From the sequence record NC_001609.1: 11,624 nucleotides of DNA, one strand, 5' to 3'. The notes under the pieces are model-generated. The model made no database searches, had not been told where the DNA came from, and was given only the letters and a program-made list of their open reading frames with translations. A program made the translations under genes and the position numbers. Origin of the DNA: Enterobacteria phage P4. This document shows, one piece after another, positions 4,174 through 10,317 of this stretch. Each line of letters opens with the position of its first letter. Position 1 is the first letter of the stretch.

Positions 4174-4290
4174 CTGTTTTTCTGACCAATCTATTTTCAG
4201 CCCATCAATAAATCGGAAAGTTAAATCATTTTTAATCAGTAAGTTTGGATCCGTAGCTCGGATCCAAACCAGTGCATCTTTTATCCACAT

Positions 4291-4590
4291 AAAAAATTTT
4301 TTTTCGAAAGAACTGTTCACACTGTTCACCTTTCTGTTTTCTCCTTTTATTTCAGAGTGATAGGTGGTGAATAATGGGTGAAGGGTGAACATTCGATTCT
4401 TCACCTCCGGCATTCTGCCGATGTGACTCATACCGGTGATTAATCCTCCGCACTGAAATCACTCAGGAAGAAAAAAGTTTTTTTTGATTTGATTGTTCAC
4501 ACTGTTCACCTTTCGTTTTTCTCTTTTAATTTCAGTGTGATAACGGGTGAATATACGGTGAAGGGTGAACAGTGGATTGTTCACCTTCGG
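4291..4590. repeat. crr (cis replication region): two 120-bp direct repeats carrying alpha-binding type I iterons
   Basis: Copies at 4291-4410 and 4471-4590 are near-identical, with an exact 180-bp period (ACTGTTCACC at 4321 and 4501) and a 60-bp unrelated spacer. Each copy holds several TGTTCACC / GGTGAAYA octamers in both orientations. Confidence 0.75.
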
Positions 4591-4635: not shown

Positions 4636-6969
4636 TCAGGCTGTTGTAGGGTCGTCACATTTTGGCAGCCAGTCGCCGTAGCTTTCCTCTTTCAGCGTCA
4701 GGTTGGTCTGTATCCCCTGTTTGGTATGGCGTTTCTCGTAATTCAGTCCGTATTCCTTCAGCATCACCGGCAGCCCCAGCCCGAACATTTTCAGACTGAG
4801 TACATTCCGGTAGCCGTTTGCCTCCATGTAGGCCAGATAGGCGTGATAGAGGTATTTACGGTAATTGCGCGGGATGATACTGGCGTTCCCCATATACATG
4901 CCGCTGGTCTGCGGCAGGGTTTCCAGATAGCCGATAAAATCAAACGTCGGGTCGGCATCCCGTTTGATGTTCAGTGCCTCGTCTGAGTTCTGCTGGGACT
5001 GAAGCAGTGACCGGGCGAGCATCGGGTCGCTGAACTTCTGCATCAGGTGACGCACGATGACCGCCAGCTCGCGGGTGATTTTGTCCTTAAGCTGCGGGTC
5101 GCGCTCCTGCGGGGCTATCTGTTCCGGGAAGTGAATAATCACCCGTCGGCGTGACACGCCGCCGCTGCGGTCGGTGAAGCGCATCGGGTTATTGTTCACG
5201 GCCAGAATCACCGCCGGGATGTGCGTGGAGTACGCATCCCGGTATTTCGGGTCAACGGACACCGCATCGCCGCCGGTGATGGCCTTGAGTCCGGCACCGT
5301 CGCCGCTCCATTTTTCCTGGTCCGGCAGGCGTATCAGTGAGAAGCCAGTTAACGCGGCACGTTCACGCGGGGATTCCAGCGTCTCGATGGTGGCCGACGT
5401 GGCGTTATCCTCCCCGGCCAGCAGGGTGGCTATTTCGGCCATGATACTTTTGCCGCTGCCGCCGGGACCGGTCACCTCCAGAAAGAGCTGCCAGTCGTAG
5501 CGGTTTGCCAGCACCATAAACAGTGCAGCCAGAATCACGTCGCGTTTTTCCGCACGGCCACCGGCGGCACGGTCAAGCCAGCGCCAGAAGGCGGGGGCGT
5601 GGGTTTCCAGCGTTTCACCGTCCACCGGCGGGGTGAAATCCACATCGCACAGGGTGCGCATCCAGTGTGACGGACTGTGCGGGTGGAACGTGCCGTTCTG
5701 CGTGTCGAGCACGCCGTTACGAAAGCCAATCAGGCGGCGGGAGGGGGCTTCCTGCTGCGGAATAATCAGCTTCAGGGTATCCACCACGGAGGCCACCTTC
5801 CCGGAGGAGAACGGCGCACGCAGACGCTGAAACAGCCCGGCCACATCCCGGGCAAAGTCCTGTGGCGGCAGCACCTTCCAGACACCATTTTCATAGCGGG
5901 ACAGAAGCTGGCCGTTGGCATCGACCGCGAGCGCCTCGCCGTAATGCTCATAGATACGCATGGCCTTTTCGCTGGTACTCATGGCGGAAAACTCCGCTTC
6001 GCTCATGGTGTCGAACGGGCTTTCAGCCGGTGGCCGGATGGCATCGTAAATGGCCTTACGGGTGGCCTCCCCGCCGTACTGCGTGAAGGCATCATTCCAG
6101 TCACCGAAGACCGGCGGCAGGGCAACAACACCTTCACACGCATCTGCGGCTGCGGCGGCTTTTTTCTGGCCGTCACCACTGAGGTCACGGTCAGCGGCAA
6201 GGACAATCTGACAGGCGGGGTGCTTCTGCCGGGCAAGGCTGGCCAGAGAAAGGAGGTTCACGGAAGAAAGCGCCACCATCACCGTTTCACCGGTCAGGTG
6301 ATGTACGGTAAGTGCGGTCGCGTATCCCTCCGCTATCCACAGACGTTTTCCGGCCTGATTCTGTCCTTCAAGGGTGTGACAGGTGCCCCTGACCTGTCCG
6401 CCTTTCAGGGTGCGCTTACGGCCGTCAGCACTGATTAACTGAAGGTTAACCAGTTCGCCGCTGTCGTCATACAGTGGCACCACAAGGTCACCGGCGCGCC
6501 AGCTCACGCCACCGGCTCTGTGTGTGCCGGTCAGCATCCGGCATTCCCGGCCGGGAAAGCCCTTGCGGGTCAGGTAGGCGTTACCGGTTCCGGTACGGGT
6601 TTTCGCCATCAGGGTTTGTGCCAGTGCGGCGGCGTTCTTCCGGGCAGCGTCTGTTTCATCAACGGCGGCGGTCGTCACTGCCGGGTCAGCCGGTGGCAGG
6701 CTGCCGGTCACGGCAGCCACCTTTGCGGCCGCGTCGGACGGGGAAACACCAAAAACCTTTTCAACCAGTTTCAGGCCGTCACCGGCACCACACTGATTGC
6801 AGTACCAGGTGCCGCGCCCCTCCCTGTCATCAAAACGGAAGCGGTCACTCCCGCCACAGACCGGACAGGGCTGATGACGGTTCTTCAGCACCTGAATCCC
6901 CAGCGCCGGGAGAATACGCGGCCAGTGGCCGAGCGCATGGCTGACGGTGGCGGTTACGTTCATTTTCAT
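4636..6969 (-). CDS. alpha: Alpha protein: bifunctional DNA primase / helicase with C-terminal iteron-binding domain (P4 replication protein)
   Basis: 777-aa ORF. N-terminal zinc-ribbon CPVCGG...(x)...YCNQCG, primase region, then Walker A GPGGSGKS (D5-like helicase). AAGGAG SD 8 nt upstream of the ATG at 6969. Length matches recalled P4 alpha. Confidence 0.92.
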   Translation of the reverse strand: MKMNVTATVSHALGHWPRILPALGIQVLKNRHQPCPVCGGSDRFRFDDREGRGTWYCNQCGAGDGLKLVEKVFGVSPSDAAAKVAAVTGSLPPADPAVTTAAVDETDAARKNAAALAQTLMAKTRTGTGNAYLTRKGFPGRECRMLTGTHRAGGVSWRAGDLVVPLYDDSGELVNLQLISADGRKRTLKGGQVRGTCHTLEGQNQAGKRLWIAEGYATALTVHHLTGETVMVALSSVNLLSLASLARQKHPACQIVLAADRDLSGDGQKKAAAAADACEGVVALPPVFGDWNDAFTQYGGEATRKAIYDAIRPPAESPFDTMSEAEFSAMSTSEKAMRIYEHYGEALAVDANGQLLSRYENGVWKVLPPQDFARDVAGLFQRLRAPFSSGKVASVVDTLKLIIPQQEAPSRRLIGFRNGVLDTQNGTFHPHSPSHWMRTLCDVDFTPPVDGETLETHAPAFWRWLDRAAGGRAEKRDVILAALFMVLANRYDWQLFLEVTGPGGSGKSIMAEIATLLAGEDNATSATIETLESPRERAALTGFSLIRLPDQEKWSGDGAGLKAITGGDAVSVDPKYRDAYSTHIPAVILAVNNNPMRFTDRSGGVSRRRVIIHFPEQIAPQERDPQLKDKITRELAVIVRHLMQKFSDPMLARSLLQSQQNSDEALNIKRDADPTFDFIGYLETLPQTSGMYMGNASIIPRNYRKYLYHAYLAYMEANGYRNVLSLKMFGLGLPVMLKEYGLNYEKRHTKQGIQTNLTLKEESYGDWLPKCDDPTTA

Positions 6970-6983
6970 GGTGTTGTTCTCCT

Positions 6984-7304
6984 TCAGTGCAGTACCGGCG
7001 CTTTTATGTGACGGGCACAGAGTTCATCCATCACAACCAGCCCGAGAAAGGACAGCGACGGCGCGGCCTTCAGGGGGCCGGATTCCATTAAATCTTCCAG
7101 CAGGGCACAGGCTATCTGACGCCCTTTTTCCTCACCGTGCTGGCGCAGATAAAAGCCTTCCAGCTCAGCGGCGATGGCCGCCTCCAGTGACTCAAGGGTG
7201 AGATGCGGGTAGCGGTGCTGACGTTCGCACACGGTCAGCCAGGCACAGGCGACAGCGCGACGGTAAAGGGCAGCGCGTAAGACGGGCGGTAAGGGTGTTT
7301 TCAT
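6984..7304 (-). CDS. Hypothetical protein (106 aa) immediately upstream of alpha
   Basis: ORF with ATG at 7304 preceded by GGGAGAA SD; stop 14 nt before the alpha start. Function not recognised. Confidence 0.65.
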
Positions 7305-8419: not shown

Positions 8420-8505
8420 GATGGCGATAGCCCAGACGGGGGTGAGAATACCGGCTTCACAGGATACCGGCCAGCCCGGAGGCTGCCCCGCCTGAGCTAC
8501 CATTG
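8420..8505 (-). ncRNA. cI: Candidate cI immunity RNA region (approximate)
   Basis: Untranslated leader between the predicted PLE and kil. Contains a segment (plus-strand GGGGGTGAGAATACC, 8437-8451) complementary to a 10-mer direct repeat GTTCTCACGC found upstream (8660-8669) and downstream (8408-8417), matching the seqA/seqB/seqC logic of P4 immunity. Boundaries are approximate and from memory. Confidence 0.3.
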
Positions 8506-8689
8506 ACTCTGCGGCATAATGAGCGGACGCGGGCAGGATGCACGGAATGCCATCTGCACGACTGACCACACACCACACCATAATCTGGCGCTCTGTGGCA
8601 TTGATTGCGACACAAAAAAAGACGCGTGGCGCGTCATATGTCGCCTGTGAATTGCTCGGGTTCTCACGCCCGGCTGCCGATTTTGCGGC

Positions 8690-8729
8690 AGGCGAAAAAC
8701 TATATCCGCAAATGCCGGAAAAAGGCAAG
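8690..8729 (-). promoter_or_regulatory. Candidate early leftward promoter PLE (sigma70-like)
   Basis: On the minus strand, TTGCCT (-35, plus 8729-8724), about 18-nt spacer, TATAGT (-10, plus 8704-8699); predicted start near 8690. Lies just downstream of the vis stop. Confidence 0.3.
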
Positions 8730-8763: not shown

Positions 8764-9030
8764 TCATGCGTCGTACCCCCGTTTGCGTCCGGCAATGCGT
8801 CCGGCCATCCATGCGGTGACTTCAGAGTGCAGCCAGGCCACATTTTTACCGCCAAGACTCACCTGCGGCGGAAATTCCCCCTTACGGATGAGTTCGTAGA
8901 TGGTCGAGCGTGACAGGCCGCACAGGTGCATCACTTCCGGCACACGTAAAAAACGCTCCTGCGTGATGTCCGGCAGCGGCATCAGTGGCGTCACTGGGGC
9001 GGGAGACGGGGAAGAAAAAACAGCTTGCAT
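8764..9030 (-). CDS. vis: Vis, AlpA/Xis-like helix-turn-helix regulator and excision factor (orf88)
   Basis: 88-aa ORF with ATG at 9030 and GAGG SD 7 nt upstream. Contains the AlpA-family HTH ...[30 protein letters not shown].... First gene downstream of the late leftward promoter. Confidence 0.8.
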
Positions 9031-9132
9031 CGGGCTACCTCGTTAATGTCCATACAGCACCGGATAAGTCCGTCCGGCTTCGGGTAGCGCTTTATTTTGT
9101 GAATATTTTCAGCAGACGCAACAGGGGGGATT

Positions 9133-9150
9133 TGTTCAGGCTGTCTTACA
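9133..9150 (-). promoter_or_regulatory. TGT-N12-ACA dyad: Delta/Ogr-type activator site of the late leftward promoter PLL
   Basis: TGTTCAGGCTGTCTTACA at 9133-9150, the P2/P4 late-promoter activator dyad, about 100 bp upstream of the vis start in the leftward direction. Confidence 0.5.
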
Positions 9151-9179
9151 ATGGCTGTGTGTTTTTTGTTCATCTCCAC

Positions 9180-9209
9180 TTAAAGTCATTTAAAGCCACT
9201 TAAAGCAAT
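9180..9209. promoter_or_regulatory. Three tandem cox-box-like repeats (TTAAAGNNAN) at exact 10-bp spacing
   Basis: TTAAAGTCAT / TTAAAGCCAC / TTAAAGCAAT at 9180-9189, 9190-9199 and 9200-9209, upstream of the PLL activator dyad. Resembles binding sites for helper P2 Cox (and possibly P4 Vis). Confidence 0.45.
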
Positions 9210-9308
9210 TTGTAATTTTTATAGTGAAATACAAATCGTTTCTTCTTATTCATTCCCGGCGAATTAATAAAAACAAACAGTAGTAAACAGCACAAAAAGC
9301 CCATCAAC

Positions 9309-9414
9309 GGGTGAACAGTGGTGAACAGACGGTGAACAGTCATTACTGCGATTGTTCACCCTTTAACTTACTGTATTACTTATCTTTTTTATTAAGGTGA
9401 ACAGAGGTGAACAG
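9309..9414. other. ori: origin of replication with six alpha-binding type I iterons and an AT-rich spacer
   Basis: GGTGAACA at 9310-9317, 9320-9327, 9331-9338, 9396-9403 and 9406-9413, plus inverted TGTTCACC at 9354-9361. AT-rich stretch 9362-9395. Same octamer as in crr. Confidence 0.65.
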
Positions 9415-9492
9415 TAAAATATAAAAAAACAAACAGTAAGCCGGTTTTTCCTGCGACCTTTTCCTGGCTTGCCGGTCTGAGGATGAGTCTCC

Positions 9493-9510
9493 TGTGTCAG
9501 GGCTGGCACA
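9493..9510 (+). promoter_or_regulatory. TGT-N12-ACA dyad: Delta/Ogr-type activator site of the late rightward promoter Psid
   Basis: TGTGTCAGGGCTGGCACA at 9493-9510, about 75-90 bp upstream of the sid ATG, consistent with an activator site centred near -55. Confidence 0.55.
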
Positions 9511-9582
9511 TCTGCAATGCGTCGTGTTGTTGTCCGGTGTACGTCACAATTTTCTTAACCTGAAGTGACGAGGAGCCGGAAA

Positions 9583-10317
9583 ATGTCTGACCACACTATC
9601 CCTGAATATCTGCAACCCGCACTGGCACAACTGGAAAAGGCCAGAGCCGCCCATCTTGAGAACGCCCGCCTGATGGATGAGACCGTCACGGCCATTGAAC
9701 GGGCAGAGCAGGAAAAAAATGCGCTGGCGCAGGCCGACGGAAACGACGCTGACGACTGGCGCACGGCCTTTCGTGCAGCCGGTGGTGTCCTGAGCGACGA
9801 GCTGAAACAGCGCCACATTGAGCGCGTGGCACGCCGGGAGCTGGTACAGGAATATGACAATCTGGCCGTGGTGCTGAATTTCGAACGTGAACGCCTGAAA
9901 GGGGCGTGTGACAGCACGGCCACCGCCTACCGGAAGGCACATCATCACCTTCTGAGTCTGTATGCAGAGCATGAGCTGGAACACGCCCTGAATGAAACCT
10001 GTGAGGCGCTTGTCCGGGCAATGCATCTGAGCATTCTGGTACAGGAAAATCCGCTCGCCAACACCACCGGCCATCAGGGCTACGTCGCACCGGAAAAGGC
10101 TGTCATGCAGCAGGTGAAATCATCGCTGGAACAGAAAATTAAACAGATGCAAATCAGCCTCACCGGCGAGCCGGTTCTCCGGCTGACCGGACTGTCAGCG
10201 GCAACACTCCCGCACATGGATTATGAGGTGGCAGGCACACCGGCACAGCGCAAGGTGTGGCAGGACAAAATAGACCAGCAGGGAGCAGAGCTTAAGGCCA
10301 GAGGGCTGCTGTCATGA
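9583..10317 (+). CDS. sid: Sid, external scaffold / capsid size determination protein
   Basis: ORF track starts at GTG 9565, but the ATG at 9583 is preceded by AGGAG (9571-9575) and gives 244 aa (MSDHTIPEYL...), matching recalled Sid length. Helical, Ala/Glu/Leu-rich sequence. Confidence 0.85.
   Translation: MSDHTIPEYLQPALAQLEKARAAHLENARLMDETVTAIERAEQEKNALAQADGNDADDWRTAFRAAGGVLSDELKQRHIERVARRELVQEYDNLAVVLNFERERLKGACDSTATAYRKAHHHLLSLYAEHELEHALNETCEALVRAMHLSILVQENPLANTTGHQGYVAPEKAVMQQVKSSLEQKIKQMQISLTGEPVLRLTGLSAATLPHMDYEVAGTPAQRKVWQDKIDQQGAELKARGLLS

Follow-up and report, generated by a model that had tools for sequence, protein, structure and literature searches.

Six iterons and an AT-rich spacer between vis and sid very probably form the replication origin ori1 of satellite phage P4, with the same layout in other enterobacterial satellites

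The stretch of DNA analyzed here (the window; 11,624 bp) is the complete genome of satellite phage P4, and its positions 9309-9414 are almost certainly ori (ori1), the origin from which this phage replicates. The locus itself is already known: work published from 1985 to 2002 defined its type I iterons, crr and the alpha protein, and a crystal structure is available for the binding domain of alpha. The interval had been read as an origin in an earlier note made from the sequence alone, and this correct identification serves as a positive control. The origin reading is borne out by the identity of the phage, by the repeats annotated in GenBank entry X02534, by the domains of the alpha protein and by the conserved six-site layout, and our analysis found no evidence against it.

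P4 replication is bidirectional, of the theta type, and requires both ori and crr in cis. Work by Krevolin and colleagues from 1985 reportedly mapped bidirectional replication to the ori region by electron microscopy, and Tocchetti and colleagues are said to have described in 1999 a minimal ori1 of 123 bp, comprising a 35-bp AT-rich region and six type I iterons with a spacing near the helical period, that was inactivated by the deletion of iterons or by insertions of 6 or 10 bp. The same 1999 study reportedly placed another origin (ori2), devoid of iterons, within the alpha gene; if so, ori1 is not the sole possible start of P4 replication.

The window carries the P4 gene set, i.e., the gop/beta region, an integrase, the alpha primase-helicase (777 aa), a DUF5375 gene, an Ash-family gene, an Ogr/Delta zinc-finger gene and Psu. 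Over 801 bp (8900-9700), the window shows 99.9% identity to X02534 ("Bacteriophage P4 essential region"), where orf88 (vis) and sid are annotated on either side of the ori region, which is the vis-sid intergenic region; no open reading frame of at least 50 aa was found across 9204-9543. The depositors of X02534 had already annotated, in the 1980s, imperfect direct repeats at window positions 9307-9340 and 9396-9415. Two RNA families gave matches at the Rfam gathering score on the minus strand, the C4 antisense RNA (P4 immunity RNA family; 8420-8507, 74.9 bits) and the Hfq-binding sRNA isrK (8615-8692, 60.8 bits); they lie ca. 100 bp apart within the early leftward operon.

The most conspicuous feature of the origin is the octamer GGTGAACA, of which the window holds 11 exact copies against 0.37 expected from dinucleotide-preserving shuffles of the same 11,624 bp; the maximum among 200 shuffles was three copies, and none reached four. 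All copies are confined to two places, six of them in ori and five in crr (4323-4585), so that both parts of what had been claimed from the letters, an octamer array at 9309-9414 and the use of the same octamer in crr, were recovered. In ori, the octamers occupy 9310-9317, 9320-9327 and 9331-9338 on the plus strand, 9353-9360 on the minus strand, and 9396-9403 and 9406-9413 again on the plus strand. The inverted copy thus exists as proposed, one base to the left of the 9354-9361 given for it in the earlier note, and the AT-rich stretch between the fourth and fifth sites is likewise real and measures 35 bp (9361-9395) instead of 34.

The conserved unit is longer than the octamer, a 10-mer, RGTGAAcAGT (in the form returned by the repeat finder, GGTGAACAG(T/A)). 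Iteron 1 (GGTGAACAGT; 9310-9319, plus strand), a putative type I alpha-binding site, contains the exact octamer, belongs to this 10-mer family and has a column conservation of 89% across 25 elements. It is followed after 10 bp by iteron 2 (GGTGAACAGA; 9320-9329, plus strand, 85%) and after a further 11 bp by iteron 3 (GGTGAACAGT; 9331-9340, plus strand, 86%). Iteron 4 is inverted (GGTGAACAAT on the minus strand; 9351-9360, 89%) and pairs with iteron 3 as an inverted repeat of 11 nt. On the far side of the spacer are iteron 5 (GGTGAACAGA; 9396-9405, plus strand, 88%) and iteron 6 (GGTGAACAGT, with GTGAATAGT in most relatives; 9406-9415, plus strand, 88%). In terms of the type I iteron, TGTTCACC / GGTGAACA, ori therefore holds six exact copies near helical periodicity: the site centers are offset by 0, 10, 21, 43, 86 and 96 bp, which corresponds to 0, 0.95, 2.0, 4.1, 8.2 and 9.1 helical turns, a drift of at most 0.2 turn. 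These near-whole numbers of turns put all six sites on roughly one face of the helix. Two peculiarities of P4 were seen along the way: its sixth iteron (9406-9413) is a perfect GGTGAACA where most relatives carry GTGAATAG, and its iterons 3 and 4 are separated by an additional base, position 9342 being missing in 22 of 24 relatives.

The spacer (9361-9395; 35 bp, 82.9% AT), presumed to be the DNA-unwinding or helicase-loading element, has the fifth least stable duplex of all non-overlapping 35-bp windows in the genome (nearest-neighbor free energy, z = 2.6). Its length is nearly invariant, with gaps in one to four of 25 sequences at only two of the 35 columns, and its sequence, approximately TTTAAyTTAyTGtATT..TATnTTTTT, is kept across genera with a column conservation of 76% as against ca. 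50% in the flanks. Conservation of this degree exceeds what an unwinding element of purely compositional nature would need, and that the spacer is conserved in sequence, beyond its AT content, is a mildly new side observation. A second AT-rich stretch (9416-9440; 84% AT) contains a conserved A-tract followed by AAACAG, and its first part (9416-9426) is annotated in X02534 as "put. ori consensus sequence". It holds the right copy of a 21-nt direct repeat (9262-9282, AATTAATAAAAACAAACAGTA; 9418-9438, AATATAAAAAAACAAACAGTA; 86% identical) that brackets the six-iteron core; the right copy, with its A-tract and AAACAG, is kept in relatives with an alpha identity of at least ca. 74%, and conservation of the left copy is limited to close relatives. 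DNA to the left of the array is AT-rich too (70% AT at 9180-9309). The first DNA to melt would probably be either the spacer or the AT tract to its right (9416-9440), with 9180-9300 as further AT-rich DNA nearby.

The presumed initiator is encoded on the minus strand by the alpha gene (4636-6969; 777 aa), whose Pfam domains (Zn_Ribbon_Prim, Toprim_3, D5_N, DUF5906 and Pox_D5) describe an initiator, primase and SF3 helicase in one protein. Residues 671-770 (encoded at 4660-4959) match PDB entry 1ka8, "P4 origin-binding domain", exactly (E = 1e-63). This domain has been described as the winged-helix domain of alpha (PMC2777425), and it is stated, second-hand, that alpha binds the P4 origin repeats through it and then unwinds and primes (PMC4234260; PMC2777425). 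Directly upstream of alpha, also on the minus strand, lies a 106-aa DUF5375 gene (6984-7304; Pfam DUF5375, E = 3e-63) that is kept beside alpha in the relatives. We take it to be cnr, the copy-number regulator acting on DNA binding by alpha that is associated with the work of Ziegelin and colleagues of 1997; Cnr limits copy number by changing the binding of alpha. Ziegelin and colleagues are also said to have found, in 1993, that the type I iterons TGTTCACC of both ori and crr are bound by alpha, a protein with 3'-5' helicase as well as primase activity. Because alpha unwinds and primes by itself, P4 initiation is expected to be independent of the host proteins DnaA, DnaB, DnaC and DnaG.

The other place where the octamer clusters is crr, the cis replication region (4291-4590), which the repeat finder and the octamer search resolve into two direct repeats of 120 bp each (4291-4410 and 4471-4590) with 82% identity. 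The repeats start 46 bp past the alpha stop codon and lie 4.7 kb from ori. In addition to the five exact GGTGAACA sites there are others with a mismatch, and allowing one mismatch gives ten sites in all, five per repeat, with the same orientations (-,-,+,+,-) in each. The organization differs from that of ori, and the module of three direct sites, one inverted site, AT-rich spacer and two direct sites is missing from crr. An equivalent cluster is widespread among relatives, at a distance of 54-320 bp beyond the stop codon of alpha. Flensburg and Calendar reportedly defined crr, in 1987, as two 120-bp repeats needed in cis. It is also cited in the literature as a replication region required in cis, alongside alpha as essential for P4 replication (e.g., PMC6092414). 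The only perfect DnaA box (TTATCCACA, 4281-4289), situated 2 bp from the first crr repeat, was rejected as a candidate element, being within chance expectation and missing in 77 of 77 relatives.

We envisage a mechanism in which alpha would bind the iterons of ori and crr through its C-terminal domain, and the molecules gathered on the two iteron groups would oligomerize into SF3 helicase rings across the spacer, with crr possibly brought in by looping. Melting would start either within the spacer or within the AT-rich tract on its right side, and the primase of alpha itself would then start both leading strands for host polymerase III.

The ori region is widespread: 1,069 of 5,426 complete E. 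coli genomes have it, in every case in the chromosome and at 69-100% identity. Scanning of one genome per species yielded 80 loci with an alpha homologue from many Enterobacterales genera (alpha identity 57-99%). In these, the origin was also sought de novo, i.e., as the most locally clustered 8-mer located 1-3.3 kb upstream of alpha, with no use of the P4 motif. The top 8-mer was a register of (G/A)GTGAACAGT in most loci with enough upstream DNA, and in nearly all such loci once the alpha identity was above ca. 74%; in about 45 loci, a stretch of 130 bp contains 5-7 sites. Placed side by side, 24 representative loci have the P4 layout in the same register (three direct sites, one inverted, a spacer of ca. 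35 bp, two direct), and the DNA on either side of the core is unalignable among them. This geometry is kept down to an alpha identity of 57%. In the alignment of 25 sequences, the core has almost no indels, and the mean majority-base frequency is 0.85-0.89 in the iterons and 0.76 in the spacer as compared to 0.50 in the 10-bp gap between iterons 3 and 4 and 0.50-0.55 in the flanks. Given that the comparison across genomes confirms the arrangement, we consider the geometry of three direct and one inverted site, AT-rich spacer and two direct sites to be under strong selection in Enterobacterales. Such a pattern is what one would predict for a protein-bound origin of fixed geometry, and it agrees with the reported sensitivity of ori1 to insertions.

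A switch of iteron specificity in divergent lineages (GTGAAGAG or GTGAATAG versus GTGAACAG), perhaps in step with the binding domain, was entertained and discarded: the variants are mixed within single origins, and position 6 is therefore simply degenerate. Among the loci were also four short contigs (L008, L009, L010 and L044) whose alpha is 98-99% identical to that of P4, found in metagenome-assembled genomes labeled Ferruginibacter, Clostridiales, Ruminococcus and "bacterium"; most likely these are binning contamination by E. coli or P4 DNA.

The same module turned up in a satellite of another type. A weak blastn match, limited to the iteron block, pointed to a locus in E. coli CREC-629 (L004; NZ_CP024815.1) that encodes AlpA, an Icd-like protein, a 605-aa primase, a lambda-E-type capsid protein and a Nu1-type small terminase (terS), a gene set that is PICI-like and not P4-like. 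Its primase is 48% identical to residues 290-771 of alpha, the helicase and origin-binding domains included, and is devoid of the Zn-ribbon/Toprim N-terminus of alpha. Directly downstream of the primase gene (L004 positions 5866-6125) are nine exact copies of GGTGAACA, and the module of three direct sites, one inverted site, ca. 36 bp of AT-rich DNA and two direct sites aligns base for base with P4 ori (window 9296-9430). Origins of this type occur in 594 of the 5,426 complete E. coli genomes, of which at least one (NZ_CM195844.1) contains both an L004-type origin and a 100%-identical P4 ori. The octamer thus accompanies the alpha-type C-terminal domain in satellites of two different architectures, which is further evidence that it is the recognition site of the initiator. 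That P4-like elements have this iteron module in common with a widespread PICI-like lineage is another mildly new side observation. The L004 locus (12 kb) has the same integrase (WP_072652362.1) annotated at both ends, and the PICI-like origin is found six times in NZ_CP024815.1, which together suggest that the element is present as a tandem array.

The P4-like and PICI-like families exploit different helper phages. Their common module bears on the exchange of replication modules between satellite families and on any interference between satellites that reside in the same cell; cross-talk between the two families is possible. We go somewhat further in two proposals that, taken jointly, we consider rather unlikely to be correct. 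Owing to the near-invariant length of the spacer and a sequence kept across genera in which the flanks are randomized, the spacer may be a sequence-specific element and not just DNA that melts easily, e.g., a defined site for the loading of alpha or for the first primer; and P4-like and PICI-like satellites with a common initiator and iteron specificity could fire or titrate each other's origins.

The array lies between vis and sid and is flanked by two TGT-N12-ACA elements (9133-9150 and 9493-9510), a location that also invites a reading in which it is mainly a transcriptional operator for divergent late promoters, PLL leftward to vis and Psid rightward to sid, with no replication start at all. 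TGT-N12-ACA matches the consensus for Ogr/delta activator sites in late promoters of P2/P4; PLL and Psid would then lie on either side of ori. A further such element is found at 9531-9548, and the window total of five, against 2.45 expected, is not significant by itself. We regard an operator of this kind as very improbable, however, since the nearest iteron is 80 bp away from the element at 9493-9510 and 160 bp away from that at 9133-9150, and a search for sigma-70-like promoters in 8900-9700 found none. The same octamer moreover fills crr, outside any promoter region, and in the PICI-like element the complete module sits directly downstream of the primase in surroundings free of divergent vis/sid promoters. 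The protein in question is, in addition, a primase-helicase whose C-terminal domain has been both named and solved as an origin-binding domain.

Equally improbable, in our estimation, is that the array is a copy-control site at which alpha is titrated or handcuffed, with crr or the internal ori2 as the actual place of initiation. In its favor, crr is richer in sites (ten as compared to six) and, being immediately downstream of alpha, holds the very position that the origin has in the PICI-like element; Tocchetti and colleagues are furthermore said, in work of 1998/1999 that is cited in PMC6092414, to have described a second replicon that uses ori2 and crr. Yet a conserved spacer of near-invariant length between phased sites is a layout of the initiation type, and it is ori, not crr, that has it. 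The PICI-like origin beside the primase is likewise built as the ori-type module and not as a crr-type repeat, and both the reported mapping of the in vivo start by electron microscopy and the reported 123-bp minimal ori1 point to initiation at ori1. The array may nevertheless have a role in copy control alongside initiation.

That chance or low sequence complexity accounts for the repeats, or that the inverted pair formed by iterons 3 and 4 is a transcription terminator hairpin, is scarcely conceivable: the scan did report a stem-loop at 9331-9360 followed by a T-containing tail, but this hairpin is nothing other than the iteron pair, the single terminator-like match equals the chance expectation (0.9), the loop (9341-9350) is unconserved (50%) with arms conserved only as much as the other iterons, and 11 octamers where no shuffle had four, in an array conserved across genera, leave hardly any room for chance.

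With 9309-9414 read as ori1, the comparison also provides a signature for annotation, i.e., RGTGAAcAGT arranged as three direct sites, one inverted site, AT-rich spacer and two direct sites, 1.6-2.6 kb upstream of alpha, together with a crr-like cluster just downstream of it. Such a signature is of practical use for P4-like prophages, thousands of which are at present without an annotated origin.

Among known systems, the locus is the same as the published P4 ori1, with no difference (Krevolin 1985; Flensburg & Calendar 1987; Ziegelin et al. 1993; Tocchetti et al. 1999; Yeo et al. 2002, PDB 1ka8), and only the figures for conservation across genera and the 10-mer consensus RGTGAAcAGT are added here. 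The origins of Gram-negative PICIs resemble it in that two iteron sets flank an AT-rich region (sites 1-4 and sites 5-6 in P4), and a rep-ori segment of EcCICFT073 is able to drive replication (Fillol-Salom et al. 2018, PMC6092414). They differ in their position, immediately 3' of the initiator gene pri-rep, whereas P4 ori is in the vis-sid region 2.3 kb upstream of the alpha start; in P4 the place just 3' of alpha is held by crr, and PICIs are not described as needing a second cis site of this kind. Pri-Rep is, moreover, only distantly related to alpha (PMC6092414). In the L004 PICI-like lineage, the octamer is identical to that of P4 ori, and the geometry of direct and inverted sites around the spacer is the same.

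Classical plasmid iteron origins with Rep initiators (pSC101, R6K, F, P1 and RK2) are a weaker match, as their iterons measure 17-22 bp in contrast to the 8-10 bp of P4, which are spaced at 10-11 bp and of mixed orientation. A plasmid Rep recruits DnaB and DnaG from the host, whereas alpha is itself helicase and primase, and no DnaA box was found in P4 ori. The closest analogy in mode of action is offered by the origins of SV40/polyomaviruses and papillomaviruses. Their initiators, the SV40 large T antigen and papillomavirus E1, also combine an origin-binding domain and an SF3 helicase in one protein, bind short direct and inverted repeats beside an AT-rich element and form helicase rings with no separate loader. 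P4 departs from them in requiring a distant second site (crr), the origins are without sequence homology, and the binding fold is a different one, i.e., a winged helix in alpha, to which the phage protein adds a bacterial Toprim primase.
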